A stretch of DNA of 64,000 bases. Source: Eledone cirrhosa. Its lineage: Eukaryota. The stretch's first letter is position 1, and every line of letters starts with the position of its first letter. The DNA is taken from positions 16,864,001 to 16,928,000 of the forward strand of contig OZ024752.1 of the NCBI GenBank assembly GCA_964016885.1, written 5' to 3'. Under the pieces are notes generated by a model. That model was not told the origin of the DNA and ran no database searches. It saw only the letters and a list, made by a program, of their open reading frames with translations. Of the stretch, positions 14,289 to 64,000 are shown in pieces. A program made the position numbers and the translations under genes.

Positions 14289-15871
14289 AATATTCCATAT
14301 ATGGTAAAAGTGATTGTCGCAAGGATTGGTCAAAAGTTTGTTGTTGAGACACATAATTCTATCATGGCAATTTGTGGAAGGAAGAGGTAGCTGAACTTGC
14401 CAGTAGAAGAAAGAGGGAGAGGGAGTGGAGGAAACCCAGTCGTGCGTTGAAAGTGACGACTACAGCAGAATCCTAAGGATAAGAGGTCAAGATGGGGAGG
14501 GGGAGGAAGTCGAAACAATAAGTAGATCTATATGGAGTAAATCTATATAGAAAATAAGAATGTTAAAAATATAAAAAAACACAATTTCTGGTTACTATTC
14601 CCTATATAAGCTTTGTTGGAGGTGTCCGTCCTCACGTTGCACTGGTAGATCATATTACGATCTCTGCATCTGTTGTCGAGGGGGAAAATGGATCCAACAG
14701 GACAGTTACACCTCCTGGTCGGCTCTCCACTGCTATCTAGGTTATTTCTTCCATAGGGGTTGAGTTTTTTTGTTGTTAGAGGAGACGATGTTTTGTGCAA
14801 AGTTAGGTGTGGTGCTGTAGGAGATTTTGATGGTATTTTTGTTGATTATGTTGCGGTAGCGGTGTTATAATGGGAAGTGTTTTTCGAGGAGCCTAAAAAA
14901 GATTTTTCCGATAGGTGTTGCCACCTCAGCATTATGGGGAGGATTGAACCACGTTACGTTGCGTGAGTCGCGGTGTCGCCTGCTGGTTCCGCTAAGGGAA
15001 GTTGGATAAAAGGATATTTCCTCCCGGAAGCCACTCCGCTTGAGGGCCTGGTTGTAATGAGGGGCATGTTCGTCGAATATCTGCTCATTAGCGGACAAAC
15101 GAGTTATGCGGAGGGTGATGTTTTAAACCAGGTTATTGGTGATGTTTCTGGGATGGTTAGAGCGGCGGTGGATGTAGTGCAGGTTGTCGTTTGATTTCCG
15201 GTATGGATAGTACAGATCATTTTCGAGGTTAAGGGTAACGTCCAGCAAATTGACTCGGGTTAGGGACGTTTGTAGGGAGATTTTAAATCCCCAGTCCCGG
15301 AAGAAGTTGATTAGTTGTTTACAGACCCGGTCTGTACTACTGCGGTTGTACCCTTTGAGGGTGAGGAGCCCATCATCCTGGTACAATCCACCGCCGAATG
15401 CAGGAAACATTTCGGTGAGTTTAAATAGTAGGAATAATCCTATAAGATCTGTGACCTCGGCCGAATCCGTCGCGCCCATACTGACGTCGAAGGGGGAGTC
15501 GGGAGCTCTCTTTATCCACTTGGAGTTGTCGAAAAGTAGGACTGTCTTCCTGGCGTGGAGAATGATATTTCTTTCCTGGTCAGTGATTGGTGTGAGTGTT
15601 TCTTTCAATTATGTTTCTATCATCTTTTATTGTCTGCTACTCTCATTCGAATTACCTATTCTATAACCTCCCTCCTCCATTTCATACACTATCCTTAGAA
15701 TCTGTTGTATACATATCACTTTCAACGCTTGACCGACCCCACTCACTCCCCATTGTTCTACAGGCAAGTTCAGCCACCCCTACCTCCCACCAAATGCCGT
15801 GATAGACTTATTTGTTTACAACAAATTTTAACCAATCCTCTTGACAACTACATCTTCCCAAATAAGGAAGT

Positions 15872-15968
15872 ACCCCCTTGACAAGTTCGGCTATTTATTC
15901 ACCAGGCTAAACATTCTAATTTAGTCCAGAAATAGCCGTCGAAACGGCTTGAGCTCTGCCGTCGGGGT
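15872..15968 (+). ncRNA. Hammerhead ribozyme, family 2 (U3-A8 core)
   Basis: CCCC TTGACAA (15878-84) G..CGGCTATT..AATAGCCG TC GAAA (15941-44) CGGC TTGAGCTCT GCCG TC GGGG; cleavage triplet GUC at 15961-63. Confidence 0.8.
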
Positions 15969-16584
15969 CATACTTTTTCCTATTTCCCACTCTACTACCC
16001 TAAGTATTGAGTACTCTGGTGCGTTATGGTCCATCTGGTTCCTTACCACGATTCCTTTGTTTTATATATTATATATAGATATAGATATAGATAATAGATG
16101 TCAAGATGAATGGACCTGTTATTTTTATCTAAAGACATTTGTTCCAATTCCACCCCGTCCGTCCCTTCAATCTATTTAATTTCAAGCGTTACCCTAATAT
16201 ATTAGTACTTGTCAAGAAATGACAGAAAATAATCGGTAAACAAAAGCCCATAAGTCTTTAGACTAAAAGATTAACAATTAAAACCTAGAAACCATGTATG
16301 GACCAAATAAATTGCTGACTAAACAACGTGAATAAGATCTAAAGGATTGATAACAGTTTGTTTTATTGTGTTTTTGTTGATTTTAGAATAAGTACAAAAC
16401 ATAAATTGATCCATATGGATTGTGAAACTATATACATGAAATAATGTTATGATGTGGAAAGATCAATATGTAAAAATAGACGTAGGAAGGGGGAAATATA
16501 TTTAATAAGGGAAATGATGAACAAATAACATGAAAAAAGCAGCTGTTTCAATGAGATCAATGGAGTATGTAACACTAGACCACT

Positions 16585-19457: not shown

Positions 19458-19551
19458 ATATAATAATAATGATTTTTTTATTGGCCCCAAGGGCTGACAT
19501 CAAGAAAAACATTACATACGGCACAATAATAGTAATAATAATAATAATAAT

Positions 19552-19809: not shown

Positions 19810-20057
19810 TTTCTTTATTAACCACAAGGGTTTACATAAAGTAGACATTAAGGACAGTGCAGGACAATGCAGGACGGTACAAATGGGCATTTCTGCGTGT
19901 AAAAAACAAAAACAGAGGATGTAACAAAAAATAACAATGAAAAATTCCCCAATAGGGGGGAGACTTCGGAGGGACATTTGTGGAGAAAGCCCAGTAAAAA
20001 GCCACAATGACCCTGACCACCAAGGCAAGTGCCCTCTCCCAGTTTTCCACCTTTAAT

Positions 20058-23000
20058 TTACAGATATATGCTCAGAGTAGGCCCATTCACTCGGGCCATT
20101 CTTGCTTCTCTCACCCATCTTTCAACAAAATGCTGGGAAGAGAGCACTTCCCTCTCTACTCTGATTTTCCTTTTCAAATGAAATTTGAAAAAGTCAATCA
20201 GAGCATCACCGAAGAGGTAAGTGCTCGTCTTCAGCCCTTTCAAACGTGTCCACCATACTATCTCTTTCGCCATGGCCACCAGGCAGATAAAAACTGCCTG
20301 CCCTTCCCGGCTAAAGGAGGAGGGCGGGGCAATCCTCACGATGGACTCAGATGATAGCCGGATCCGTCCTAAACGCGACAGCAGGTGTTCGACATAAACC
20401 CACAAGTCAGCAATTTTCGGACACTGGACTAGTGCGTGCAGGACGGTTTCGTCGCCCTGCGCGCATCTCGGACATGCCCGGCTGACGGCACCTCCATGCC
20501 TGTAGAGTTTATCCCGAACTGGCAAGGCTCCTCGGTAGCACTGCCAGGCCAGAGATTTCTGGAAGTTGTCCATAGGCCCTGGCCCGAAAGTTCTTCCGAA
20601 GAGATTGGCTAGTTGATTTTCGTCGACGCCTAGAGTTTCCCCAAGTACGTCGTCGCTCTTATCCTCCACTAATCCTCTATAGAACGCCGAGGTGGAGTTT
20701 CCACCGATCACATTGCCCGATTGGTCGAGGGCTGTGAGCGCCTGAAGACATTCCAGTCTCCAGGCGCTCCCTCTCGGTCTTCGCTTGACCCAGGACTGCA
20801 GCTCCGTCAAGGCAACGAGCTGGGGAAACACGCGTCTAGCAAACGGCGACCACACCTGATCACCGTCGAGGAAGAGGTGGAGATGTCGTAGCCTGAGCGC
20901 GTGCCTGCGCATCATCAGCCACGGCATGCCCAGCCCTCCACGTAGCGGGTGTTGACAACAGATGGACCGCCTGACCATCGGAGCGCGTCCCTTCCACAAA
21001 AAGCGAAAGAGCAAACGCTCCAGCACAGTCAGGCGAGGCTTAGGACAAGGTACGACGGTCAGGCGGTAGCAGATGACGGACGCGATGTACGCGTTAGCCA
21101 CCTCCGCTCGACCTTTCAGGGATAGCTTCCTCTCGGCCCATTTCTGGGTGAGAGAAGCCACCCTGCTCGTCACCTCGTCCCAGTTTTTGTCCGTCTGGAG
21201 GTCCGGACCGAACCAGACCCCTAGCAATTTAACCGTCCGTCCGTCCAGCGTCCGACGACGCTGTTGGACGGCATGGACCTGCCTCTCCAGGTGCCGAGCT
21301 GCAGGCCCACTGACTTTTCCTGGTTGATCATTGCTCCTGTCACCGCTTCGTATTCTCTTAGTGTAGTGCCGATCGCCTCGATGTGTTTGGCGTTCGACAC
21401 CACTACGGTGACATCGTCCGCATATGCTGATACGGATCTTCCGCATCCTAGTTCGCGCGGGACCCCCCTCAACGTTTCCAGTTTGTGCAGTAATTGCTCG
21501 AGAGTCAATACGTACAAGAGGGACGAGAGGGGACATCCTTGGCGGACCGAGCGCATGATGTTGAACGGTTCCGACAGGTGACCGTTCACTCTCACCACAG
21601 AGCAGATGTCGCTGTGCATGGCAGCGATCCAGCCTCTGAAGACGGGCCCAAAGCCAGCCGCCCTCAGGACTGCCGCTAGGTAACGATGGTCGACCCTATC
21701 GAAAGCTTTCGACTGATCTAAATTGATCAAGGACCCACCCGTGCCAGGTTCCCTAGCTACCTTCTCTACGATGTATCGCATGAGGTGGAGGTTGTCGTGG
21801 ATGGATCTGTCGGGAATGGCGCATGTCTGCGCCTCTCCCACCAAACCACCAACGACAAGCGCCAACCTCTTTGCTAGCACCTTGGCCAAAATCTTAAACT
21901 CTGTGTCTAGCAGAGTTATGGGCCGGAAATTTTCTATGTTATCCCCCTTGTTCGGATCCTTTCTCAGCAGTGCCACCGCTCCTCGGCTCACAGAACTGGG
22001 AATTCTCCCGTTCTGTTGCCAGTTGCAGTAGACGTCCGCCAAGAGGCCTCCGAACAAGTCTGGCATCTGTGCGTAAAGTTCATAGGGCAGACCATCCAAA
22101 CCAGGCGATTTACCCCTTGTGCAGCCAGTCATTGCCTCCCTTACTTCAGCGGCTGTTATCGGCTTTTCGCAACACTTCGCCTCAGTGGCCGAGAGCCGCG
22201 GCAGTCCGTCGAGGTAGACACTAAAGTCCATCCCTCTACCCGGCCCCCCGCTGCCCCCGAACAGCTGAGCGAAGTGTCGCTGAAAAGCTTCACACATTTG
22301 CCCGGGATCGAGTAGCATGCGCCTGTCGTGGTCCACCAAAGACCGGATCGTGGCTTTGTTGCCACGACGCGCCTCCGCCACTCGGGCCCATTGAACGGCT
22401 TTCGTCCCCTCGTGTCTGAGAGCACGCACCCTTGCTCTGACAACGCAGCCTTCGTGCTTTGCATTGAAGAATTGGTCAAGGGCCAATTTCGCCGCAAGCA
22501 CGTCGGTCGCAATGCCTTTGCTAAGCGCCTCGTCTAATTTTCTAACTAGTTCTCCCTCTGCTCTATTTTTCTCTATTGCTAAAGCCTTACTAAACCTAAT
22601 CGATTCTATTCTAATCGTTCTTTTCAGAGCAAACCACCACTTGTTGTTGACGATGGCCCCCGTCAACGCCCGCTTAACTAGTTCGCTAATCCGGTCTCTG
22701 TAGGCCTTGCGCGCTGGTAAGGACGCGTTTAGCTTCCAGTAGCCGGGTCCTCGTCTATGAAGCCTATCTAAGTCAAGCACACAGGTCACGAATTTGTGGT
22801 CCGTGTAGCTGACTATCTTGAATTGTGGACAGCCTATGCTAGACCTATCTATTTCCCTACAAAATACTCTATCTAGATATGATCTGGATGACCCTATGCG
22901 ATTTGTCCAAGTCCACATTGGCACATTCGGGAAATCCAATCGGTACCTGTCAGACAGTTCAAAACGCCTGAGCAGGTTGGTGAGGCTCTTGCACCCTCCA

Positions 23001-23475
23001 CCCCTATCCGCTAATCCCACACAGTCCCAGCGTGCATCTAAGATCCCGTTCCAGTCGCCCACTAACACTAAAGAGCGGGACGTTCCAAGAAAGGTCTCCA
23101 GACGCCGGAAGAAATCAGGCCGCCCTGCTCCTGTCGGGCATAGACGGCCACTAGCCTGAAAGCTTTCCCGTCTCCGCTGGTCACGTCCAGCACCACCAGC
23201 TTACCCTCTGGGTCCAGGAAGATGGCCCGTATGGCGAGATCCAAACCTCTCCGAAAAAGAACAGCAACTCCTCCACCCGATCCAGGACGGCTGGGAGATG
23301 CGTACACATCGTAGCCGCCGAAGATCGGTGCGAAGGCCCGTGCTTCGGAGATTCTGGTCTCGCTGATGGCCACTACATCTATGTTTAGTGACCTGAGGTC
23401 GTTGAGCAGGTGACCCTGCTTCCATGACGACCCCAAGCCACGCGCATTTATGCTGCCTATTCTGAGTGAGGTCAT
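20058..23475 (-). pseudogene. Tx1 ORF2 (APE endonuclease-RT-CCHC), two frameshifts
   Basis: SINARGL/ISETR/GDWN/YLDR/TDH (APE); QGCPLS and YADD (RT); CPRC..ETVLHALVQC. Split over ORFs 23068-23475, 21221-23068 and 20058-21536. Confidence 0.93.
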
Positions 23476-23510
23476 GTTTAAAATAGAGTGGAAAAGATGG
23501 GAAAGACCAC

Positions 23511-25618
23511 TTACCGTACTTTTGGTAGAGGAGGGATGGTTTTTACATCCCTTTTCACTTGATCGTCTGGTGAAGGGACCGTTGAATCGTCCCTTCGGCT
23601 GGTCGTCGGCTCTTCTAAGAGAATGTCTGAATATACTCTTCGATTGATGGTTCCTCCTAGGTCCCTGAAATCACCAACTGCGTTGGGGAATTTCGTTTTA
23701 ATGTTTGTGTATTGTTTCTGTGCTATTTTTAGCAGTCTTATGTTAGTTGGCGTTTTGATTGGTGCTGGTATTATGTAGTCCTGTTGTGAAATGTCTGTGT
23801 GTTCAATTATGTAAGTCATTAGTTTCTTGTTGTGTGTGTTTATTGCCGTGCATTTGTTTTTCTGGGGGTGGGGTGTGGTTCTGCTATTTTCTTGTCGTTG
23901 TTGCTGGGTGTGTGTGTTTTGTTGTTGTGTTTGCGATGTTGGTGCTTGTGGTGGTGGTGTTGAAGGTGTTGTTGGCGGTGGGGTTGTCGCCGGTGGTGAT
24001 GGTGGTGCTGGTGTGGGTGGTGATGGTGTTGGTGGTGTTGCTGCTGTGGGTCTCTTTGCAGTAGACTTTACCCTTTTCTCATTTCTTTCCTCCCTTTTCA
24101 AAGGCGACGATGCGCTGCTTCTGCGTTTGTGCCTTCTTGCGACCTTTTGCCATCCCTCTCCCACCTCACACTCCATGTCTGATTCTGTGAGGTCGGGGAG
24201 GGGTACCAGCTCCACTCTTTCACTTGTTGTTGTTGGTGATGTTTGCACTGGAGTCTCTGTTGCAGCTGCATTTGGTATTGCTGTTGTTGTTGTTAATATT
24301 TCCACTGCTGCTGCTGTTTTTGATTTCCGTGGAGTGGGTATGGGTGCCACGGACCTATCGTTCCTGGTTGCCGCTTGTCCTGTTGCTGGTAGCTGTGGAG
24401 CCGGATTCGGAAGGAGGGGGGTTTTCTCCTTTCTCAGGGTCTTCTCGTTGCAGAAGGCCCTGAGGTGAGTCTTCGATCCACAGCGAAAGCATTTCGGGCG
24501 TTTGCCCTCAACACTTATGGGCAGTTGAGTGCCGTTATCGAAGTCTATCACATCCGGGATAGCTTCGATGCACTCCTGGTTGGTTTGGATTAGCATCTCA
24601 ATGGAGGAGCCGACCCAATCTTCTCTTACTTTTTCTGTACTTGCAGTACAGTTGTTTTGTCCTCGATTCCGACGAGTACAGACGCGGCCAGCCAAGAAGG
24701 GGTCATTCCGGGGTGGGGGGGTGGGGGGACGTGGGTCAGTTTGACCCTCACAATTTTTTTCCCGCAGTAGGAGGGCACCAACACCATTTCCTCGCTCCTT
24801 AGGGTCACTACTGATTGGGCCTTTGCCTCCTGGGGTGTGGCAAAAAGTACGTCTACGGTGGCATATTTTTTGCCTCGGGTGATGTGCGTTTTCCGCTGCC
24901 ACACAGACCCCAAGGCTTTTTGTATTTGGGCCTCTGTGGCTCTTTCCACCCTACGGGATTTTGTACTTACTGTACGGTACGTGACCGTACAGTGCTCTTG
25001 GGTTTCGAAAAATTTTTCCGCTGCCTTGCAGATTGCTCGGTGTCCGTTCTTTGTCACCATCTTCTTCGCTTCCTCTAATTCCTCATTTATTATGAGGATT
25101 GTTTCCAAGTTTTTCGCAATACCTGCAAATGAGATTGGTTTTTCTCTGCTGTTGTTGTTGTCGTCAGAGCTGCTGGTACTTTTGTTGTTGCTGCAGGTAC
25201 TACGACTACTGCCTCCGCCGCTGTTGCTGTGGTTGTTGTTGGTGTTGCTGCTGCTAATGCTGTTGTTGTTTATGCTGCTGGTGATGCTGTTGCGGCTGCT
25301 ACTGTTGTTTTCATTGTCACTGTTGCTGTTGTTATTACGGCTGCTACTGCTATTATTCCTGACGTCAGACGAATGAACTGGGTTTTCGTATTTCCCGCAC
25401 ACCTGTTTCGTCGCTGTCGTCGTCGTCGTGGAGAAACCTTGCACGCTTTGCACGAGACTTTTCTTTTCTTTCGTCACTTGCGAAAGAGAAGGGAGGGAGA
25501 GAGACACATTTAAAGAAGGGAGGGAGAGAGACAATCTTCTCTCTGCTGTAGTGATGATTGAGGAAGAAGAAGACGGAATGAGTGGGAGTGACGTATGAAA
25601 TTTCTTTTTCGTAGCCAT
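23511..25618 (-). pseudogene. Tx1 ORF1 (gag-like zinc knuckle), frameshifted
   Basis: CFRCGSKTHLRAFC (CX2CX4HX4C); ISVEGKRP is shared with the other two ORF1s. The frame change lies in the 24626-24902 overlap, which contains G-runs. Confidence 0.88.
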
Positions 25619-39594: not shown

Positions 39595-39972
39595 ATCCTT
39601 TGGATCTTATTCAAGTTGTTTAGTCAGCAATTTCTTTGGTCGATACATGGTTTCTAGGTTTTAATTGTTAATCTTTTAGTCTAAAGACTTATGGGCTTTT
39701 GTTTACCGATTATTTTCTGTCATTTCTTGACAAGTACTAATATATTAGGGTAACGCTTGAAATTAAATAGATTGAAGGGACGGGCGGGTGGAATTGGAAC
39801 AAATGTCTTTAGATAAAAATAACAGGTCCATTCATCTTGACATCTATTATCTATATCTATATCTATATATAATATATAAAACAAAGGAATCGCGGTAAGG
39901 AACCAGATGGACCATAACGCACCAGAGTACTCAATACTTAGGGTAGTAGAGTGGGAAATAGGAAAAAGTATG

Positions 39973-40069
39973 ACCCCGACGGCAGAGCTCAAGCCGTTTC
40001 GACGGCTATTTCTGGACTAAATTAGAATGTTTAGCCTGGTGAATAAATAGCCGAACTTGTCAAGGGGGT
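39973..40069 (-). ncRNA. Hammerhead ribozyme, family 2
   Basis: Reverse complement of 15872-15968. Confidence 0.8.
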
Positions 40070-42357
40070 ACTTCCTTATTTGGGAAGATGTAGTTGTCAA
40101 GAGGATTGGTTAAAATTTGTTGTAAACAAATAAGTCTATCACAGCATTTGGTGGGAGGTAGGGGTGGCTGAACTTGCCTGTAGAACAATGGGGGAGTGAG
40201 TGGAGTCGGTCAAGCGTTGAAAGTGATATGTATACAACAGATTCTAAGGATAGTGTATGAAATGGAGGAGGGAGGTTATAGAATAGGTAATTCGAATGAG
40301 AGTAGCAGACAATAAAAGATGATAGAAACATAATTGAAAGAAACACTCACACCAATCACTGACCAGGAAAGAAATATCATTCTCCACGCCAGGAAGGCAG
40401 TCCTACTTTTCGACAACTCCAAGTGGATAAAGAGAGCTCCCGACTCCCCCTTCGACGTCAGTATGGGCGCGACGGATTCGGCCGAGGTCACAGATCTTAT
40501 AGGATTATTCCTACTATTTAAACTCACCAAAATGTTTCCTGCATTCGGCGGTGGATTGTACCAGGATGATGGGCTCCTCACCCTCAAAGGGTACAACCGC
40601 AGTAGTACAGACCGGGTCTGTAAACAACTAATCAACTTCTTCCGGGACTGGGGATTTAAAATCACCCTACAAACGTCCCTAACCCGAGTCAATTTGCTGG
40701 ACGTTACCCTTAACCTCGAAAATGATCTGTACTATCCATACCGGAAATCAAACGACAACCTGCACTACATCCACCGCCGCTCTAACCATCCTAGAAACAT
40801 CACCAATAACCTGGTTAAAAACATCTCTCTCCACATATCTCGTTTGTCCGCTAATGAGCAGATATTCGATGAACATGCGCCTCATTACAACCAGGCCCTC
40901 AAGCGGAGTGGCTTCCGGGAGGAAATATCCTTTTATCCAACTTCCCTTAGCGGAACCAGCAGGCGACACCGCCACTCACGCAACGTAACGTGATTCAATC
41001 CTCCCCATAATGCCGAGGTGGCAACACCCATCGGGAAAATCTTTTTTAGGCTCCTCGAAAAACACTTCCCATTATAACACCGCTACCACAACATAATCAA
41101 CAAAAATACCATCAAACTCTCCTACAGCACTACACCTAACTTTGCACAAAACATCGTCTCCTCTAACAACAAAAAAACTCAACCCCTATGGAAGAAACAA
41201 CCTAGACATCAGGGAGAGCCGACAGGAGGTGTAACTGCCCTGATAGATTTACGTGCCCCCTCAACAACAAATGCCGAGAACGCAACGTGATCTACCAGTG
41301 CAACGTGAGGACGGACACCCCCAACAAAGCTTATATAGGATTAACCGCGTGTGACTTCAAGACCCGGCTCTACCAACACCGACATACTTTCCGAAATCCG
41401 GTCAGGCGACATGCCACTACACTTTCGGGCCACATCTGGGACCTCCAAGTTAATAATATAACCTACAATCTCACTTGGAACTTACTGTCCAGAGCTAACT
41501 CTTACACGGGAGGACGTCGCCCGTGTAAATTATGCTCGGAGGAAACATTACAAATGCTGTTTTCGAAGGACCAACTCCTAAACAAGAAAGACGAACTGGT
41601 AACCGCATGCAAACACAGATTGTGTAGGACTTACCTCGCCCTCAAATCCCATAACGACCCGGGTGGGTAGACAAGGGCTGATACCCCCCACTTGCCGAAT
41701 AAGTTAGGGGAAACCCCAGCTTACATAGGTAGATGTATCTTTTTTCTTTTCCTCTTTGTCTTCTTCTTCCCCCTGTCTCATCCTATCACTTCCTTCGACC
41801 CCCTATTTTCTTCCTCGTCTGCTTTTCCCCTTTCGCCTACCCCGATGCAGCCCATCGGGCCTCTGTAGCATCAGTTCCCCCACCCCTGTAATTTTAAGAT
41901 AGAATTGGCCGAATACGTTTTACTAACTACTTATAGCAGACGTGTTAAACCCCTTAATTCTGTATCAGTTCTGGTACTACAAGTTTTTTCTACAAGTTTT
42001 TTCTATTCTTAACTTATTAACCTGTAATTGTCAGATAGCATTGTGATTTTTTTTATTCATTTCTCACTATCTAATTTTATATATTTTTTTATTTCTTTCT
42101 ATTATCTTTTATTGTTTCCTACTCTCATTCGATTTACCTATTCTATAACCTCCCTCTTCCATTTCATACACTATCCTTAGAATCTGCTGTATACGTATCT
42201 CTTTCAACGCTTGGCCGACTCCACTCCCTCCCCTATTGTTCTACAAGCAAGTTCAGCCACCCCTACCTCCCACCAAATTCCATGATAGACTTATTTGTGT
42301 TTACAACAAATTTTAACCAATCCTCTTGACAACTACAATCTTCCCATATAAGGAAGT

Positions 42358-52321: not shown

Positions 52322-52395
<74 letters not shown>
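52322..52395. repeat. (TATC)n microsatellite
   Basis: Direct reading; partner tract at 58220-58302 followed by (TC)n. Confidence 0.98.
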
Positions 52396-52396
<1 letters not shown>

Positions 52397-52626
52397 AATC
52401 TAGCTGTCGTCTGTTCTACAGTGTGGATGTCATTCACTTCGCACAGAAGTTTTGTTCAAATTTATTGAGGAAATTTTGTGAGTTCAAACTTAATTTTGAT
52501 ACAATTGTGTAGCTTGACCCTCCGTCTGAACTGTCAGGCGGTGGGTCAGCTCATCTTTACCCCTCCTAGAGGTGAAAAACCTGTTTTAAAAAATTTTGTG
52601 TAAAAAATTTCAATCGTCTAACAGAA

Positions 52627-54534
52627 ATGTTAAACGCAGCGAACGAAAATAGTGGTGGGGGGGGGACAGCGGTAAGAGTTGTAAGCTCGCACGCTTTAGT
52701 CCTCCCTTCCTTCCCAACTAACGCCATAGAGAAGGAAGGAAAAATTAAAATAAAAACAGACGAATCTGCGGAGAAAAAATTAAATGACGAAACACAAATC
52801 TGGACTTGGATTCCAACAACGAAAAAAAAAAAAAAATTTGAAAAATTGCATGACAATACTAATAACACAAACAAAGACACAACAAACACAAAAATAACAG
52901 TTGAAAATAACACCATATCAGAAAACAAAGCAGACGACAAGATTTCATTTGCACAGAAAACAAAGAAATCTTTGACTTATATAGCGGAAAACATTTCAGA
53001 TGTGGTACGAAGGATCACGGACGCCAAACAATACATAAGTGAAGGAGAGAATGGTATTTTATCGGTAAAAATGCCTCAAGAATTCACGAAAGACATTGAA
53101 AGCCGAACGGTCAAGTTTCGGAACATCAACAACAGTACAAAAAAACCTGAACAGCCTTCTCAAGCAGATATCAAAACAGTACTCACAGAAGTACTTAATG
53201 AAACCACTTTCATAAGAAAAGACAGACTGTATGGAAGCCTAGCAATTATCATGAAGAACGAATCGGCGGCAAAAAAATGTGCTTTGTCACCGATTCGTTC
53301 GAAAAATTTCACCTTTTGTCCATCTTACATGGGGAAAAGAACTCAACGCATATGGCTGGATGCAATGATGCCAGATGTGGACTACTGCTGGCTCATAGCT
53401 GGCTTCATCGATCCAGTGAATGACAACGTGATTTCCATTGGGAAAACCACAGGCAATGCGTTCAGTGGAACAGGTATAGAGCTGGTAGTACAAATGAAGC
53501 CTGAACGCATCGCCCAAATACCCGACAGAATCCTATTAGAGGACCACGGGTATATAAACATTAGCGTGGAGGGGAGAAGGCCGTCCTGCCATATCTGTGC
53601 AGGCAGAGGGCACCTGAAGGCCGCTTGTCCCCAACTCAACAAAAAGAAAACCCTGCTACCAACACCAGCTCCACCACCACCACCACAACAGATAAACAAA
53701 CAACAAAACTCAGTCCCACCCAACCCGTCCCTCAGTAAAACCACAACACCACCACAACACAAACAGTCACAACACATTACCCCAAAACAAAATACAGGCC
53801 CACCCAACCTCTCACTCAATAAAACAACACAACCACCGCAGACACAACACACAACACAGTCTAACATAGTGACATCCATCTCCCCCACAAAGAAAACCAA
53901 CACAGAAACATTACCAGCAAACATACCTCTTCCCTCCAACACTGAAGATAACCCAACGAATTCGGAGGAAGAAACGGAGTCCTTCAGACAGATTAAAAGG
54001 AAAAAAAGAAAACATGTGCAAAACACACAAGGACAAACAACCCCCACCCAAATCTCAACACAATCCAACAAAACAGAAAACACCCCTCCAGCAACAAACA
54101 AAACCAAACCTGCCCCTCCCCTCTTCGAAACACTCACACCATCGAAAAAAAAGACATTACACTATACTTACATCAACAGAAACAATAATAAATTAAATGA
54201 GCTCATATACAATAATCCTTCGGTACAAACCGAAGGTGTAAACTTTGTTTCGTCAGAAAACTACCCACATTTAAAACTAATAAAGATCCCAATGAACCTC
54301 TACCAAAAACTAAAAAAGGATTTTAAGGAGGACGTAGGACCACCCTCTGTCAAACCCATAAACCGCGTCCTACTAAAAAGCTTTCCCCCTCCCCTTCCCC
54401 TCCCCAACACAACTCCAAACACCCCAACCCCACCACGCACTGACGACCCCACACCACCACAAGACACCCCTTCACCCAACACCCCCGACCCCATGGAAGT
54501 CGTGCAACCCGAACCCCGGGAAGCGGAAAGGTAG
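52627..54534 (+). CDS. Tx1 ORF1p, 635 aa, gag-like CCHC zinc knuckle
   Basis: Uninterrupted ORF; CHICAGRGHLKAAC; P/T/Q-rich linker with a basic KRKKRK patch. Confidence 0.9.
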   Translation: MLNAANENSGGGGTAVRVVSSHALVLPSFPTNAIEKEGKIKIKTDESAEKKLNDETQIWTWIPTTKKKKKFEKLHDNTNNTNKDTTNTKITVENNTISENKADDKISFAQKTKKSLTYIAENISDVVRRITDAKQYISEGENGILSVKMPQEFTKDIESRTVKFRNINNSTKKPEQPSQADIKTVLTEVLNETTFIRKDRLYGSLAIIMKNESAAKKCALSPIRSKNFTFCPSYMGKRTQRIWLDAMMPDVDYCWLIAGFIDPVNDNVISIGKTTGNAFSGTGIELVVQMKPERIAQIPDRILLEDHGYINISVEGRRPSCHICAGRGHLKAACPQLNKKKTLLPTPAPPPPPQQINKQQNSVPPNPSLSKTTTPPQHKQSQHITPKQNTGPPNLSLNKTTQPPQTQHTTQSNIVTSISPTKKTNTETLPANIPLPSNTEDNPTNSEEETESFRQIKRKKRKHVQNTQGQTTPTQISTQSNKTENTPPATNKTKPAPPLFETLTPSKKKTLHYTYINRNNNKLNELIYNNPSVQTEGVNFVSSENYPHLKLIKIPMNLYQKLKKDFKEDVGPPSVKPINRVLLKSFPPPLPLPNTTPNTPTPPRTDDPTPPQDTPSPNTPDPMEVVQPEPREAER

Positions 54535-54567
54535 GTCTCTACACTCTCCTTTGGCTCTGCCGCCCAC

Positions 54568-57500
54568 ATGGATGTGTTAAGAGTAGGATGTTTGAATGCA
54601 CGTGGCCTGGGCTCAACTTGGAAGCAAGCAAAGCTTCTAAATGACCTCAGGTCATGTAGTATAAATGTAATGGTTATCTGTGAGACTCGAATCAGCGTCG
54701 TGCGGCAGCTGGCCCCCACCTTCGATGACTTTGAGGTGCATGCATCTCTCTGTCAACCTGGAGGTGGGGGTGGGGTTGTCGTACTGCTGCAAAAACACCT
54801 GGGTCTTGCCGTACAGGTTGTGCACTCGGACCCGGAGGGTCATTTGTTGGTGCTAGACGTTGGCAGTAGTGAAAGTGCGGCCTTGAGACTGGTCGCCGTC
54901 TACTCCCCTTTCGGAGCCGAACGGCCCGACTTCTTCCAGCGTTTGGAGACTTTTCTGGGAACGTCGCGTTCCCTGCTTCTAGCGGGGGATTGGAATGACA
55001 TCCTGGATGCACGTTGGGACTATGCAGGAGCATGTCCTAATAGAGGGGGGTGTAACAGCCTCAAGGGGTTACTCGACCGTTTTAACTTGGTCGATAGATA
55101 TCGACTAGATTTTCCAACTGTGCCTACCTGGACTTGGAGAAACCAAAGTGGTCAATCTAGATCGTACTTAGATAGATTCTTAGTTAGAAGTAAGGATAGG
55201 GACATATTAAGCTGTCCAGAAATGCGCACGGTTGGCTACACGGATCACAAATTAGTGACCTGCGTGGTCAATCTCGAGAAAACACATAGACAGGGTCCCT
55301 GTTACTGGAAACTTAATTTGTCTTTACCGGCAAAAGAGACTTACAGAAACCGGATTAGCAGATTAGTTAAGGAGAGGTTGACGGGTGCAATCGTCAACAA
55401 CCGATGGTGGGCATCTCTCAAAAGAGAGATTAGAACAGAATCAATAAGTTATAGCAAGATGTTAGCTGCCGATAGGAATAGAAACGAGAAAGAATTAACA
55501 GGTAAATTAGAAGAGGCAATCAAGAGCGAAGATGTGGTCAGAGTGCTGGCATCGAGGACGGCCTTGAACCAGTTTTTCGATGCAAAGCACGAAGGCTGCG
55601 TCATTCGAAGCAAAATACGTGCTCTAGGTAATGAGGGGGCCAAAGCCGTTGGATGGGCCCGCGTGACAGAAGCTAAGAGTGGAAATCGATCCACCATCCG
55701 GTCGTTGCAAGACGAAGATGGACGGGTGATCCGGGAGCCTAAGCAGATGTGCGAGGCCTTTCAAAGGCACTTTGCCCGATTGTTCGGGGGAGGCGAGGGT
55801 CCGGGCGTGGGCGTGGATTTCGGTCCATACCTCGACGGCCTGCCGCGTCTCTCGAGCGAAGAGGCAGAGTCCTGCGAGGGACCAATCTCGGCTGATGAGA
55901 TCGGAGATGCGCTGAGCCAATGCAGCAGACGCAAATCTCCAGGTCTCGATGGTATACCTTACGAACTTTATTTAGCAATGCCGGTCTTCTTCTCCGAACT
56001 CCTCGAAGCGGTCTACTGCAATTGGCAGCAGAACGGGAGAATTCCTTGTTCTGTAGCCAAGGGCGTAGTCTCGCTGGTGAGGAAGGACGAGAACAAGGGG
56101 GATAGTATAAATAATTTTCGGCCCATAACCCTGCTAAACACAGAGTTAAAGATTTTGGCCAAGGTGTTAGCAAAGAGGTTGGCGCTTGTCGTGGATGGCC
56201 TGGTGGGAGATGCGCAGACATGTGCTATCCCATCCAGGTCCATTCACGATAACCTCCACCTCATGCGATACATCATAGAGAGGGTTGGCAACAAACCCGG
56301 CTTCGGTGGGGCCCTGATCAACTTGGATCAGTCTAAGGCCTTCGATAGGGTCGACCATGGTTACCTGGATGCGGTGCTAGCGGCGGCTGGGTTCGGTCCT
56401 GTTTTCAGAGGCTGGATCACTGCCCTACATAGCAACCACATCTGTTCTAGGATCAAGGTGAACGGCTACCTTTCGAAGCCGTTCGAAATCACACGATCCA
56501 TTCGACAGGGGTGCCCTCTCTCCTCCCTTCTGTACGTATTGACTCTCGAGCCTTTACTGAGGAAGTTGGAGTTGTTGCAGGGTATCCCCCTGGAACCAGG
56601 ATTGAGCAAAGCGGTGTCGGCCTACGCCGATGACGTAACAGTAATGGTATCAACCGACTCGGAGATCGAGGCGATCGGTACCTTACTGGAGGAGTACGAA
56701 AGGTTGTCAGGAGCGAAACTGAACCGGGAAAAATCCATCGGGCTGCAACTCGGAACGTGGAGAGGCAGACCGATGCCTCCTGACGGTGTCGTCGGACACT
56801 GGACGGAGGGCCCGGTAAAGCTGCTTGGGGTCTGGTTTGGACCGGATCACCAGGTGGAAAAGAACTGGAACGAGGTTACGAACAAGGTGTTTGCACTAAC
56901 CCAGAAATGGGCCAAGTGTAAGCTGTCCCTAAAAGGCCGGGCGGAGGTGGCGAACATTTACATAGCGTCCGTCACTTACTACCGCCTGACTGTCGTGCCT
57001 TGCCCTAAGGAAACACTCACCACCATGGAACGCATGCTCTTCCAATTTCTTTGGAAGAAGCGTCCTCCTATGGTGAGAAGATCCATCTGCTGCCAACAAC
57101 CTTCGAAAGGAGGGCTGGGGATGCCGTGGTTGATGATGCGTAGGCACGCATTAAGGCTACGGCACCTACAGGTATTTCTCACTGGTCAACCGGTGTGGGC
57201 TCCGTTCGTGAAACGAGCCTTTCCGAGACTCGTCTCGCTCACCGAGCTACAGTCCTGGGTCAAGCAAAGATCCGGAAAACTGGGAGACTGGCACACTGAG
57301 TGTGCTCAGGCGCTCAGGGCTCTCTGGCAAGCGGGCCAAGCCATCGGTGGAGAATCCACCTCATCATTCTATAGAGGGCTGGTGGCTAGCAGGGGCGATG
57401 ACACCCTTGGAGAGTCGCTGGACATGGAAGAAGACGAACTGGCCAGCCTGTTCGGTAGGACTTTCGGCCCAGGACCAATGGACAACTTCCAGAAGTCACT

Positions 57501-58005
57501 GGCCTGGCAGTGCTACCGGGGGGCTCTACCCGTTCGAGAGAGGCTCTACAGACACGGGCGCCCGGGCAGGGATCCCTCAAAAAAGATTTGCCCTAGATGC
57601 GTGCGTCACGAAGAAACCGTTGCGCACGCATTGGTGCAATGTCCGGGCGTGGCTGATCTGTGGGGCTACGCCGAACAACTGCTGTCGCGGGTGGCGCCGA
57701 TTAAATTGACCGCCGAGTCCGTGATGACAATCAAACCGCCTCCCCTCTTCACAAAGGAAGCAAAGGCGGTTTTTCTGTGCGTAATAGCCATGTTGAAAGA
57801 GGTTGTTTGGTGGACACGATTGAAAGGTCTGAGGTCAGGCAACTTCCTCTCTGGCCATAGTCTGGTCTACTTCTTCCGATATCACTTCGGAAGAAGGATA
57901 AGAATGGAGAGAGAGGTGCTTGGCCACAGGCAGTTTTATGAAAGGTGGGTGATAGTGGCGAGAATGGCTCGTGTAAATGGGCCTTCTCTGTATACCATCC
58001 TGTAG
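54568..58005 (+). CDS. Tx1 ORF2p, 1145 aa, APE endonuclease + reverse transcriptase + CCHC
   Basis: CLNARGL, ICETR, GDWN, YLDRF, TDH; KSPGLDG, FRPITLLN, LDQSKAFDRV, RQGCPLS, YADD; CPRC..ETVAHALVQC. Confidence 0.96.
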   Translation: MDVLRVGCLNARGLGSTWKQAKLLNDLRSCSINVMVICETRISVVRQLAPTFDDFEVHASLCQPGGGGGVVVLLQKHLGLAVQVVHSDPEGHLLVLDVGSSESAALRLVAVYSPFGAERPDFFQRLETFLGTSRSLLLAGDWNDILDARWDYAGACPNRGGCNSLKGLLDRFNLVDRYRLDFPTVPTWTWRNQSGQSRSYLDRFLVRSKDRDILSCPEMRTVGYTDHKLVTCVVNLEKTHRQGPCYWKLNLSLPAKETYRNRISRLVKERLTGAIVNNRWWASLKREIRTESISYSKMLAADRNRNEKELTGKLEEAIKSEDVVRVLASRTALNQFFDAKHEGCVIRSKIRALGNEGAKAVGWARVTEAKSGNRSTIRSLQDEDGRVIREPKQMCEAFQRHFARLFGGGEGPGVGVDFGPYLDGLPRLSSEEAESCEGPISADEIGDALSQCSRRKSPGLDGIPYELYLAMPVFFSELLEAVYCNWQQNGRIPCSVAKGVVSLVRKDENKGDSINNFRPITLLNTELKILAKVLAKRLALVVDGLVGDAQTCAIPSRSIHDNLHLMRYIIERVGNKPGFGGALINLDQSKAFDRVDHGYLDAVLAAAGFGPVFRGWITALHSNHICSRIKVNGYLSKPFEITRSIRQGCPLSSLLYVLTLEPLLRKLELLQGIPLEPGLSKAVSAYADDVTVMVSTDSEIEAIGTLLEEYERLSGAKLNREKSIGLQLGTWRGRPMPPDGVVGHWTEGPVKLLGVWFGPDHQVEKNWNEVTNKVFALTQKWAKCKLSLKGRAEVANIYIASVTYYRLTVVPCPKETLTTMERMLFQFLWKKRPPMVRRSICCQQPSKGGLGMPWLMMRRHALRLRHLQVFLTGQPVWAPFVKRAFPRLVSLTELQSWVKQRSGKLGDWHTECAQALRALWQAGQAIGGESTSSFYRGLVASRGDDTLGESLDMEEDELASLFGRTFGPGPMDNFQKSLAWQCYRGALPVRERLYRHGRPGRDPSKKICPRCVRHEETVAHALVQCPGVADLWGYAEQLLSRVAPIKLTAESVMTIKPPPLFTKEAKAVFLCVIAMLKEVVWWTRLKGLRSGNFLSGHSLVYFFRYHFGRRIRMEREVLGHRQFYERWVIVARMARVNGPSLYTIL

Positions 58006-58219
58006 GTAAAGAAGTAAAGGAGAGGGGAGCACCTTCTCCATGTGCTCCCCGGGCAAAGGATTGCACACTTTTTCGGGGGTGTGTGCAACCCCCATCACGT
58101 CCCCTCCCTTTTGAGGTTATTTTCGATTATTTTCATGTTACACCCTTTTTACTCGATTATATGTAAACTCCCCCTTTGTATTTGTCCCTTCTTTTTATGC
58201 CTTTATGGTAAATAAAGAA

Positions 58220-58303
<84 letters not shown>

Positions 58304-58322
58304 CTCTCTCTCTCTCTCTCTC

Positions 58323-61300
58323 TACCAGACGTGTGTAACTTCGCGGAGAAGTTTCCGTTATTTTATGTAAGAAAAAAACGTGAGTTTTCAGTTAAATTTT
58401 ATATTATTGTGTAACTTGAGCCCCCGTCTGGACCTTCAGGTAGTGCGTCAACTCATTTTCGCCCCTACAGGGGCGAAATATTCGTTTGAAAAATTTTTTC
58501 TCCATCGAATTTTGGAAAAAATATCATAAGTAGTTTGATTACGTTATGAACGCTGCGTTCAACGATAATGGTGGTGGAGAGTCGGTAAGACTACATAGTT
58601 CGCAGTCAACATCGTCTTCTTCCCTAGATACTATGGAGATGGAAAGACGAAATGAAAATGTAAAAACAAATTCATATTCAAACAACACAAATGACACCAA
58701 ACAGTTCAATGACAACAAAAATAACAACAACACCAATAATGATGATAAAAACAACAATGTCAACAACAACAAAGAAAAAAATAAAGACAACCCCAATAAC
58801 ACCAGCATCAAAGACAACAACAACACCAACACCAACACCAAGGAAGATACGAATAATATTAACATCAGTGACAACAAGAATAACAACAATAATGACAACA
58901 CCACCAACACGGATAATTCCACAAAAAAACCAAAATCTCCTTTGCACAGACAGTTCAAAAAAAGGAGGAACTGACATATCTCGACATAACAAATGCCGAA
59001 CAACTTTTAAAGGACGCTAGGAGATATGTCACTTTCGAAAAAAAATGGTGCTTTCAGCATCAATTCTCCGGTAGAAATTCGCAAGGAAACTGCTCTCAAA
59101 ACGATAGTTTTTAGGACAGTTTCCAATTCTACCCGAAAACCAGTCCAATTGTCACAGAAAGAAATTGAACTGGTTTTCAAAAATTCAATGAATGATATTG
59201 CATTCATTCAAAGAAGCAACCTTTTTGGGAGTATTTCGGTACTCATGAAGGATCAATTGACGGCCCAAAATTACTCTGTGTCGCCAATTGTATCCAACCT
59301 GTATACCTTTTTCCCTACATACATGGGAAAAAGGACACAAAAGATTAAAATCACGAGTATCACACCAAAGGTGAACATATGGTGGATACTGTGCGGCTTC
59401 ATCAATTTTGATGAAGACAGAATACTGTCAGTAGGAAAGTCCCCCAGAGATGTATTCAATGGGACTAGCATTGAAGTTCTGGTGCAAATGAGCCCAGAGC
59501 GAATAGCTATGATCCCACAACGTGTACTCCTGGACGGACTCACCTACATAAACTTTTCAGTTGAGGGTAGGCGGCCTTCATGTTACCATTGCTTTAGCAG
59601 GGGTCACCTGAGGGCTTCCTGTCCTAAATTAATGAGTAAAAAAAAGGCTCTTCTGCCGACACCCATCAAAACAACACAACCACCAACACCACCACAACAA
59701 CAACAACCCAACACACAAAAATAACCACAACAAACACAGTCCCACCCAACCCCACTCCACCTAAAACCACTGCAAAATCACATACAGACACAACAGCTCC
59801 CCAAGACATACCCCTCCCCAATCACACAGACGATACAACAGATGAGGCTATCTCGCCATCACCCAGTGAAGACGAGGGAGAACCCTATCGCTCGAAAAGA
59901 AAGAAAAGACATCACAAAAGCAAAAAACCAGCAAACACTACCACAAACATACAACCACCAACACAAACAACAAAAACATCACAAACAAAACCCCCACCTC
60001 CTGAAAACAAAATACCTACAACAAAACGAAAGCACACACAAGAACTACAGACAAAAACAAACACAACACAAGAAAATTACACTTACACTTACATAAACAC
60101 TGAAAACAAAACACTAATGGAGACCATCACGAACGACCCTTCGGTGAAAACTGAAGGGAAAACTTTCGCCCACTCTATTAAAAATAACAAAAAACTGAAC
60201 CTAAAACTGATTAGGGTCTCTATACAAACTTATAGGTCCCTAAAAGAAACATTTGAGAAGGATGTGGGGAATTCCTGCGTGAAACCACTTAACCGCGTCC
60301 TTCTCAAATGTCTCCCCACCCCAGACACCCCCATCCCACCAGATCCCACCCCACCAAACATCTCCGTCCCCACCCCGCCGGAAACCACCACCCACCCAGA
60401 CAACCCCTCCAACACCCCCATGGAAATCGTGCAGCCTGGTCCCCAGGAGACGAAGGGTGAGTGATCTCTTTTCCTCTTTTAACTTTTCAGCACCAACATG
60501 GCCAATATAAGCGTTGGATGTGTGAACGTACGCGGCCTGGGGATGCCCTGGAAACAGGGCAAACTCTTAAACGACCTCAGGTCGCACAGTATGGATGTAG
60601 TAGCCATTTGCGAGTCCAGGATCCACAGCGAGCGACAGCTGGCCCCCATCTTCGATGACTTTGAGATCTACGCATCTCTCTGTCAACCGGGGGGGGGGGG
60701 GGGGGCGGAGTTGCCGTTTTGCTGCGGAAACACCTGGGCCTCGTAACACAGACGGTACATCTGGACCCGGAGGGTCGACTGGTGGTCCTAGACGTTGACG
60801 GTAGTGAAGGTGGAGCCTTCAGGCTGGTGGCCGCATATGCCCCATCCGAGACACCGCGGCCAGACTTCTTCAAACGTCTAGAGACTTTTCTGGGAACGTC
60901 CCGCTCCTTGGTTTTAGTGGGGGGACTGGAATGGAATCCTAGATGCACGTTGGGACTATGTGGGAGCATGTCCCGATAAAGGAGGGTATAACAGCCTCAA
61001 ACAGTTAAATGACCTATTTGACCTGGCCGATAGATATCGACTAGATTTTCCGACTGTGCCACTGTGGACGTGGAGTAATCGTAGCGGAACATCTAGATCG
61101 TACCTAGATAGGGTTCTAGTTAGAAATAAGGATAGGGACATGTTAAGCTGTCCACAAATGTTCATGGTTGCCTATTCAGATCACAAACTAGTGACCTGCA
61201 TGGCCAACCTTGATAGAACCCATAGACAAGGACCCGGCTACTGGAAGCTGAACTTATCGTTACCGACAAGCAAAGCCTACAGTAGACGGATTAGCACTTT

Positions 61301-64000
61301 AGTTAAACAGCACTTGACAGGGGCCATTGACAACAACAGATGGTGGTACTCTCTCAAGAGGGCAGTTAGATTAGACTCGTTAGTTTTTAGTAAAGAATTA
61401 GCGTTAGATAGAAATAGAACCGAGAAGGAACTGGTAGATAAAGTAGAAGAGGCAATTAGAAGTGGCAACGTAGCCAGCGTGCTAGCAACGAGAACGGCCT
61501 TGGACCAGTTCTTCGACGCAAAACACGAGGGCTGCGTTGTCAGAAGCAAAATACGTGCTCTGGGAAACTAGGGAGCCAAAGCTGTTAGCTGGGCCCGAGT
61601 GACGGAGGCAAAAATTGGCAACAAGTCCACGATTCGGTCTTTGAAGGACCAAAACGGACGCGTGATACGTGAGCCGAAGCAGATGTGTGCGGCCTTTCAG
61701 CGGCACTTTGCTCAACTGTTCGGGCGGGGCGGCGCGCCGGGAGGGGCTATGGATTTTGGTCCATACTTCGACGGCCTACCGCGACTCTCGGACAGCGAGG
61801 CAAAGTTCTGCGAAAAGCCGATTTCAGCCGCTGAGATAGGGGACGCGCTGAGCCAATGCGGCAAACGCAAATCTCCAGGTCTCGACGGTCTACCCTACGA
61901 ATTTTACGTAGCAATGCCGGACTTATTCTCCGGTCTCCTGCAAGCGGTCTACTGCAACTGGCAACATAACGGGAGAATTTCCAGTTCTGTAACCGGGGGC
62001 GTGGTCACATTAGTCAGGAAGGACGAGAATAAGTGGGATGACATAGGCAACTTCCGGCCCATAACTCTGCTAAACACAGAGTTACAGATTTTGGCCAAGG
62101 TGTTAGCAAAGAGGCTGGCGCTTGTCGTCGAGAACCTGGTGGGAGAAGCGCAGACATGCGCAATCCCGACCAGGTCCATACACGACAACCTCCACCTCAT
62201 GCGATACATCATAGAGAGGGTAGGGTGTAAACCCGGCTTCGGTGGGGCCCTGATCAATTTGGATCAGTCTAAGGCTTTCGATAGGGTTGACCATCGTTAC
62301 CTGGATACGGTGATCGAGGCGGCAGGCTTCGGACCCGTGTTCAGGGGCTGGATTGCTGCAATGCACAACAGCAACATCTGCTCAAGGGTCAAGGTGAACG
62401 GCTACCTCTCGGAGCCGTTCCATATTACGCGATCCATTTGACAGGGATGCCCTCTCTCCTCCCTTCTGTACGTACTGACTCTCGAGCAACTTCTGCGGAA
62501 GTTGGAGCTATTGCAGGGCATCCCTCTGGAACCGGGACTGCGGAAAGCGGCGTCGGCCTACGCCGACGACGTGACAGTAATGGTGTCGAGCGCCTCGCAT
62601 ATCGAGGAAGTCGGCACCTAACTGAAAGAATACGAAAGTTTCACAGGAGCGAAGCTGAACCGGGACAAGTCCATCGGTTTGCAACTCGGATCGTGGAGAG
62701 GCAAACCGATGCCTTCCGATGGCGTCGTCGGACGCTGGACGGAAGGACCGGTAAAGCTGCTCGGCGTCTGGTTTGGTCCGGACCTCCAGGTGGAGAAGAA
62801 CTGGAACGAAGTGACGGACAAGGTGTTTGCACTCACCCAGAAGTGGGCCGAGTGCAAACTATCTTTGAAAGGTCGAGCGGAGGTGGGGAACACTTTTATA
62901 GCGTCCGCTATCTACTACCGCTTGACCGTCGTGCCTTGTCCAGCCAAAACGCTTGCCAAAATGGAGCGCGCGCTCTTCCAATTCCTTTGGAAGAGGCGGG
63001 CTCCTTTGGTGAGAAGATCCATCTGCTGCCAACACCCTTCTAACGGAGGGCTGGGAATGCCGTGGTTGACGATGCACAAACACGCGCTCAGGCTGCGGCA
63101 TCTCTACGTATTCCTCACCGGACAACCGGTGTGGGCCCCGTTCGTGAGGCGATCCTTCTCACGACTCGTCTCGCTGACCGAGCTGCAGTCCTGGGTCAAG
63201 CAAAGACCAAGGAAAATGGGCGACTGGCACATCGAATGTGCTCAGGCGCTCACAGCCCTCTGGCAGGCGGACCCGGCGATCAGTGGAGACTCCACTTCGT
63301 CATTCTATAGAGGGTTGATCCGCAGCAAGTGCGACGACGCGCTCGGTGAAACTCTAGGCGTAGAGGAAGATGAACTGGCCAGTCTGTTCGGTAGGACCTT
63401 CCGCCCGGGACCGATGGACAACTTCCAAAAGTCCCTGGCCTCGCAGTGCTACCGAGGAGCTCTACCAGTTCGAGCAAGCTCTACAGACATGGGCGCCCGG
63501 GCAGGGACCCTGCAAAAAAGATCTGTCCGAGGTGCGTGCGTAACGAAGAAACCGTCGCGCACGCATTCATACACTGCCCGGGCGTCACTGACCTGTGGGG
63601 CTATGTAGAACGACTATTGTCGCGGGTGGGACCAATCCGGTTGACCACCGAGTCCATTGTCATGATCAAACCGCCACCCTCCTTCAAAAACGAAGGAGAG
63701 GCGGTTTTCCTTTGTGTGATAGCTATGGCGAAAGAGGTTGTATGGTGGACAAGGTTGAAAGGGCTGAGGTCAGACACCTTTCTCTCCGGCCAACAACTGA
63801 TTCTTTTTTCAAATACCACTTTGGAAAAGAATCAGGATGGAGAGAGAGGTGCTGTACCCCAGCAAGTTTTATGAAAGGTGGGTGAAAGTGGCGAGAATGG
63901 CCCGAGTGAATGGACCTTCTCTCTATATCAGCCTGTAGGTTGAGGAAAAGGAGGAGGAGAGGAAAGGAGTACAAACTCTTCGTTCTCCTGGAGATGAGGG
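58323..64000 (+). mobile_element. Tx1/L1-clade LINE, copy 3, disrupted, 3' UTR runs off the window
   Basis: ORF1 pieces 58546-60464 (CYHCFSRGHLRASC). ORF2 pieces 60498-63937, with a frameshift at the poly-G near 60690-60705 and stops at 61569-71 and 62439-41. Confidence 0.93.

Follow-up and report, generated by a model that had tools for sequence, protein, structure and literature searches.

The 64,000-nucleotide (nt) stretch of Eledone cirrhosa DNA analysed here (contig OZ024752.1, positions 16,864,001 to 16,928,000; hereafter the window, in whose own numbering positions are given) contains three copies of long interspersed nuclear elements (LINEs) in which a first open reading frame (ORF1) is followed by a second, ORF2. 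The APE endonuclease, reverse transcriptase (RT) and C-terminal zinc-binding domain read from the sequence identify the elements as L1/Tx1-group LINEs; the label Tx1 comes from an earlier annotation of this DNA, the original prediction, and presumably fits. That annotation also proposed that 51 nt at the ORF1-ORF2 junction of copy 2 (54531-54581) form a short intron fusing the two frames. Our analysis points instead to these 51 bases likely being one arm of a co-evolving, predicted RNA duplex with the end of ORF2 3.4 kb away, which we call the zipper. The original finding as written is mostly refuted, and the feature underlying it is real. We lean, by a modest degree, towards a model in which the zipper prevents splicing of the full-length RNA and blocks ORF2 until a ribosome that has reached the end of ORF1 unwinds the duplex and reinitiates.

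Predicted pairing between the two ends of ORF2

Fifteen lineage representatives were drawn from loci and 40 near-full-length stretches in a survey of the 3.0-Gb genome, where the endonuclease-start motif has 10,803 matches. The three window copies belong to young, abundant families, and ORF2 DNA identity ranges from ~68 to 97% among the better preserved representatives, with two decayed copies lower. In the predicted duplex the donor-like motif at the end of ORF1, the pyrimidine tract of the spacer, the AUG of ORF2 and the AG of its codon 5 pair with the end of ORF2 and the start of the 3' untranslated region (3'UTR). In scans of whole elements the junction paired best with the ORF2 end in 13 of 14 lineages that have this end, the exception being lineage K, where it ranks third (H is without a 3' end). 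Predicted energies lie between −46.5 and −70.8 kcal/mol, with z scores of −3.3 to −7.9 against dinucleotide shuffles in 14/14 lineages. As pyrimidine-purine pairing is cheap, we used a swap test, in which composition cancels: of 86 between-clade pairs, 85 favour the cognate over the exchanged arms (mean −28.9), whereas 28 control windows in ORF2 gave −4.7 to +5.2 (12 lineages, in which the true arms score 62/62). Complementarity above that of shuffles is thus joined by covariation across lineages, seen in every third of the duplex (donor 76/86, tract 85/86, ATG region 79/86), and a single register is prominent, with 0.55 Watson-Crick pairing against 0.20-0.31 and the ATG facing the ORF2 stop. 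The pyrimidine tract changes in step with a purine tract 3' of the ORF2 stop, and the three letters of the codon-5 AGA are paired in 14, 13 and 12 of 14 lineages, respectively. Furthermore, the sense duplex is stronger than the antisense one in 12 of 14 lineages and contains more G-U pairs, which points to RNA. Pairing and covariation in the zipper thereby explain the pyrimidine tract and the AG, and such features beside a donor need not mean an intron.

The duplex is predicted in all three window copies. On the plus strand, copy 2 would join 54524-54588 to 57981-58040 (−56.1 kcal/mol), the 3' arm comprising the last ORF2 codons, the stop (TAG, 58003-58005, itself acceptor-like), the purine tract and the segment that would mask the donor. 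The arms of copy 3, also on the plus strand, lie at 60449-60518, with the donor at 60457-60462 (phase 1), the ORF1 stop at 60462-60464 and the ATG at 60498, and at 63914-63985 (−60.5 kcal/mol). Copy 1, on the minus strand, has its arms at 23454-23516 (first donor base 23514, phase 2; ATG 23475) and 20023-20083 (−57.5 kcal/mol), and as its ORF2 ends in TAA, an acceptor at the stop is absent. In the copy-2 clade the segment opposite the donor can instead form a local 3'UTR hairpin (58025-58049, plus strand; 8 bp, 9-nt loop, z −1.9 on its own), which by prediction cannot coexist with the donor end of the zipper. Several lineages share another hairpin, deeper in the 3'UTR (window ~58060-58087).

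Distant relatives were represented by 80 L1/Tx1-like metagenome loci. The match reaches the ORF2 start in 48 of them, only 3 of which have a comparable donor motif within 120 nt of that start; of the 30 with complete ORF2 and both ends, just one, a weak A-rich case, yields a duplex with z ≤ −3. As a separate observation, the ORF1 of one distant element (L232, ~1945-1955) also ends in a donor-like motif, in phase 1, with a duplex z of +1.9.

The conservation of the donor, the separate ATG, the complementarity and covariation of the arms and the unspliced state of genomic copies are read directly from the DNA. On the molecular level, U1 would meet the donor while the RNA is still being made and the 3' arm has yet to appear; the zipper would close and displace U1 once the ORF2 end is transcribed. 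If it forms in cells, the closed duplex would hide the donor, the AUG and the acceptor-like ORF2 stop, allowing full-length RNA to survive. Ribosomes translating ORF1 would then terminate in or just inside the duplex and unwind it, and ORF2 would be made by termination-reinitiation at its own start; the anatomy, with the ORF1 stop close to the ORF2 start, appears to fit. Reinitiation is described in L1 and SART1, and an AUG-tolerant form in caliciviruses (PMC5972666). In a young family with at least 575 copies, ATA replaces the ORF2 ATG and overlaps the ORF1 stop, and the donor is read through in phase 0 (L189:2772-2790; also L114, L118, L154, L161-L165, L187, L188 and L205-L208). The seven members compared are 98-99.9% alike and one has an intact ORF2; by analogy, the family fits start-codon-tolerant reinitiation.

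Several points weigh against this model. The pairing is low in complexity, and the cognate arm tops the ranking in 8 of 14 rows and falls to 12th place for one lineage. The lineages are related, most are represented by a single copy and some of these copies are decayed; the duplex and its role are themselves predictions from sequence. The autonomy of the ATG-less family is unproven: among the classes of change listed, shared changes number 9 synonymous to 7 non-synonymous and private ones 28 to 43. Finally, the zipper does not account for the T-R-R (R, purine) at donor positions +2 to +4, which is often unpaired and is a non-stop in five lineages, so that a possible role for splicing or U1 lies outside what the zipper explains.

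A more far-reaching version, which we rate as improbable, has the LINE closing the whole of ORF2 into a 3.4-kb RNA loop, with one switch running the life cycle. A race between U1 and the zipper would set ORF1-only against full-length RNA, ORF1 ribosomes would unzip the ORF2 start, and a ribosome arriving at the ORF2 stop would free the 3'UTR hairpin as the new enzyme emerges. If true, this would provide a structural mechanism for cis-preference.

Two general issues are at stake: the large ratio of ORF1 to ORF2 protein that LINEs maintain, and the way in which ORF2p recognises the RNA it was translated from. In this clade a specific structure is predicted, 14 lineages supply natural compensatory variants of it and young copies run into the thousands, making translation gating, splice masking and cis-preference each testable.

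The donor-like motif and competing explanations

A donor-like motif stands at the ORF1 end in 15 of 15 lineages. G-1, G+1, T+2 and T+6 are present in all of them, +3 and +4 are only ever A or G, and G+5 and A-2 occur in 14 and 13, respectively, with flanking columns at 5-13 of 15; these counts are partly circular, because the donor was selected as the top-scoring GT of that window around the junction. Scored against a U1 consensus, the motif comes top, alone or tied, among 250-302 GT sites in 13 of 15 representatives, and at 54531 it has the sequence of a U1-type 5' splice site. The letters originally reported for copy 2 are correct: AG/GTAGGT (54529-54536, plus strand, phase 2) encloses the ORF1 stop TAG (54532-54534), the first AG after the tract lies at 54580-54581, and removal of the 51 nt joins the frames. 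Those for copy 3 were likewise confirmed, with GTGAGT at 60457-60462, AGs at 60489-60490 and 60510-60511 in the same phase, and 1 nt too few for fusion. By phase, the donors divide into nine of phase 2, four of phase 1, one of phase 0 and one unphased, and positions +2 to +4 are the ORF1 stop in nine and not a stop in five.

The original prediction took the recurring donor/stop/acceptor geometry as selection on splice signals. For the donor this holds up, as the motif exceeds chance across the lineages aligned and its sequence supports a donor-like RNA signal under selection; the phase-2 AG is no more frequent than chance, coding explains it, and selection on an acceptor falls away. Predicted pairing of the donor to the 3'UTR (−9.9 to −27.0) exceeds that to U1 (−8.1 to −13.7) in 12 of 14 lineages, so that in full-length RNA the donor would be mostly masked. 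The donor strand is constant while its 3' partner strand varies, and this constancy, together with the retention of T-R-R at sites where it neither forms a stop nor pairs, points to a factor that reads the sequence on nascent RNA.

Such a reader could be U1 acting without splicing, which would bind the donor and protect or stabilise full-length transcripts as they are made, up to the point at which the 3' arm covers the donor. The restriction of +3 and +4 to A/G switches in all 15 lineages follows the U1 consensus while the 3' partner varies, U1 at the donor of the EVD element is described as blocking premature termination (PMC5580714), and a plain count finds a polyadenylation hexamer in 11 of 15 representatives, 140-360 nt 5' of the donor. 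However, ORF1 is A-rich, so that the hexamers may be chance, and their positions are not fixed; argued from sequence, U1 protection seems to us unlikely, and it can coexist with the zipper model. Alternatively, the donor might owe its look to an Arg codon, a stop codon and pairing with a conserved 3'UTR segment, U1 being uninvolved. Positions +2 to +4 do form a stop in nine lineages, -2 to +1 and +5 to +8 are paired in most duplexes, and the donor segment covaries with its partner. Against such a by-product, the motif is intact in the four phase-1 lineages and the phase-0 lineage, third codon positions included, and the partner changes while the donor strand does not, and we consider it rather improbable.

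A further possibility, which we hold to be fairly unlikely, is that the donor joins an acceptor at the ORF2 stop. Some transcripts would then lose the whole of ORF2 and serve as ORF1-only mRNA, with the zipper setting the share; this too is compatible with the zipper model. The ORF2 stop is TAG, readable as YAG (Y, pyrimidine), in 12 of 14 lineages. The next stop in the donor's own phase follows at codon 1 in seven lineages (A, C, Lf and I in phase 2; N1, J and G in phase 1), at codon 2 in D and at codon 4 in F, and a spliced Gag-only RNA is described for Copia EVD (PMC5580714). In E and N2, however, the stop comes late, giving a tally of nine lineages with a nearby own-phase stop, two without, two lacking the AG and one unphased, and the copy-1 family, the most abundant counted, has TAA and no AG. 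A T in a purine tract tends to begin a stop in any case, the phase changes amount to 2-3 independent events, and the TAG and its upstream pyrimidines are also paired in the zipper. Copies without ORF2 at these sites number 0/832, 0/298, 0/1,482 and 0/576 in the genome, whereas spliced copies make up ~2% of full-length primate L1 (PMC5860796). These counts, like those below, cover copies with an exact match to an exon-end motif; in lineages A, C/E/H and F they address the ORF2-stop acceptor only, the 3' end of H not being seen. ORF1-only RNA would be unable to copy itself in cis, which weakens the test.

Some further observations concern possible acceptors. The copy-3 clade has one extra base 3' of the ORF2 stop relative to sister lineages (window ~63939-63944; L198, L213), and its N1 branch has lost one base 5' of the donor (window 60455-60464), N2 having the extra base only; together the two changes in N1 would restore an immediate stop after whole-ORF2 splicing. 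A strong acceptor-like sequence lies ~180 nt inside the 3'UTR of the copy-1 family (window ~19880, minus strand), and splicing to it was found in 0 of 1,960 genomic copies. Other distal acceptors, at ORF2 codons 138 (13/15) and 936 (11/15), were rejected, as no 15-codon window of ORF2 is significantly low in synonymous variation (lowest 0.24, against a null median of 0.31). An acceptor 5' of the ATG, for an ORF2-only mRNA, was found only in N, J and K, and readthrough of the ORF1 stop was set aside because the two frames coincide in some lineages only.

This leaves the fusion of ORF1 to ORF2 by removal of a 39-61 nt intron, as originally read, which we now regard as very improbable. Joining would preserve the frame in 9 of 15 lineages, copies 1 and 2 among them, the copy-1 family has a CAG acceptor, and in D, G and J, all of phase 1, a TAG at codons 6-7 would suit the donor. 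Across the 14 phased lineages, however, an AG always in phase 2 faces, at a spacing of 39-61 nt, donors in phases 2, 1 and 0, so that no product frame is conserved: five lineages are out of frame at the codon-5 AG, including the young intact-ORF2 families N1 and F, and F lacks a fitting AG nearby. In four lineages the intron would span 39-42 nt, short of the 50-90 bp that the smallest animal introns usually measure, with lesser lengths known in parasites (PMC13644364). The AG of copies 1, 2 and 3 lies 12 nt 3' of an ORF2 ATG overlooked originally, which is kept in good context inside the would-be intron. The base 5' of the AG is A in eight, C in three and G in one of 12 lineages, and 9 of 12 thus read AAG or GAG in place of the YAG of a 3' splice site.

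Nor does codon 5 itself require a splice signal, since an Arg codon and base pairing account for the AG. This AG adjoins the first conserved motif of the endonuclease, and 37 of 75 conserved ORF2 Arg columns keep AG in all lineages; an invariant AGA occurs in just 5 of the 75, making codon 5 more constant than usual. Synonymous variation over ORF2 codons 1-15 is not reduced (observed/expected 1.16). The argument that the AG persists while the amino acid changes rested on a Ser codon private to copy 3, codon 5 reading AGA at every copy-3 family junction listed. The 1-nt loss of copy 3, by contrast, is a subfamily trait and not an assembly slip, because it is shared by most copy-3 family loci and by copies with intact ORF2.

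Genomic copies tell the same story: at the short-intron sites 0 of 1,960 exon-end matches in the copy-1 family and 0 of 832 in the copy-2 family are spliced (0/2,792). Matches without G+1 (12 in the copy-1 family) or T+2 (7) reflect point changes or a 1-nt loss, and the two without G+1 in the copy-2 family are one point change and one short deletion. A protein search, blind to the junction itself, returned a fused frame near 1,790 aa in 0 of 150 matches, its longest frame stemming from a deletion not bounded by splice sites. Contigs from five sequencing runs, aligned to copy 2, had no joint at the donor among the matches listed, which is evidence neither way; the single joint listed in a second contig comparison belongs to a diverged subfamily whose gap is filled by 65 different letters, and was not used as evidence.

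Element anatomy, families and neighbouring repeats

In copy 2, on the plus strand throughout, ORF1 runs from its first ATG to TAG at 52627-54534 and matches no Pfam family, a CCHC knuckle being visible in its translation. The pyrimidine-rich spacer (54537-54567), whose predicted partner is the purine tract, is followed by an intact ORF2 of 1145 aa from its own ATG (54568-58005), with the first two letters of the Arg codon 5 as putative acceptor (54580-54581, predicted paired). ORF2 contains endonuclease, RT and zf-RVT domains, matching PF03372, PF00078 and PF13966, the last slightly below its cutoff, and a PDB comparison gave human L1 ORF2p as the closest solved structure.

The window copies are flanked by microsatellite, (ATCT)n or (ATT)n. 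Copies often lie full length and head to tail in such targets (window 52380-58300 and 58300-64000; also L108-L111), where different families can adjoin each other. The last 51 nt of the copy 1 tail have a second copy, 80% similar, at 19464-19514 on the minus strand, possibly a short interspersed nuclear element or a truncated copy. The segments 14730-16347 and 39595-41212 form a 1.6-kb inverted duplicate of 97-100% identity, probably a recent transposon pair. A second degenerate search pattern gave 5,926 matches in the genome, and most of those listed are an abundant non-coding repeat (L148-L177). No close relative from other species with DNA context was found, and a first metagenome scan returned no relative; outside this genome a related junction lies on one contig of one other organism.

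Comparison with known systems

The elements resemble Kibi and Koshi, LINEs of the Tx1/L1 group with microsatellite targets (PMC4494074), in their two ORFs, the endonuclease-RT-zf-RVT order of ORF2 and, in the window copies, the (ATCT)n/(ATT)n flanks; the donor at the ORF1 end and the predicted start-to-stop duplex set them apart from the descriptions given there. A survey of Octopus vulgaris repeats reports active L1-Tx1 families, and its main text does not mention splicing (PMC13282606). A LINE with both a donor and a start-to-stop duplex was not found in the literature searched, a scope outside which Repbase and most subscription journals lay.

With mammalian L1 and silkworm SART1, for which reinitiation is described (PMC5972666), these elements share a bicistronic RNA, a short spacer or overlap and an ORF2 start of its own, and the need of SART1 for RNA structure 3' of the stop-start is a common theme. 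Unlike the structures described there, the duplex predicted here would act over 3.4 kb and cover the ORF1 end, the spacer, the AUG and the ORF2 stop. A functional parallel would be the Min Jou interaction of MS2 (PMC11339067), a long-distance pairing that keeps the start of the polymerase gene inaccessible until ribosomes translating the gene before it break the contact. The analogy is functional only: Min Jou is described as 7 nt in a bacterial phage RNA with its partner upstream in the coat gene, whereas ~45-60 pairs are predicted here and the partner lies at the end of the polymerase gene.

A conserved donor at the end of a retroelement's structural gene is also described for the Ty1/Copia element EVD (PMC5580714), a long terminal repeat element with a short intron and demonstrated splicing, whereas here the would-be intron is the whole of ORF2, as predicted from the DNA. 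Human L1 SpIREs (PMC5860796) likewise attest to splice sites in LINE RNA; they are present in the genome as dead ends, unlike the spliced copies looked for here, of which none was found. The 3'UTR hairpin recalls the stem-loop of stringent LINEs that is bound by ORF2p (PMC4176376), and differs from that description in lying near the ORF2 stop and not in the tail and in its predicted competition with the zipper. We propose that the system would work by analogy with MS2 coupling, laid over L1-type reinitiation and equipped with a Copia-like donor, while being a member of neither the MS2 nor the Copia group.

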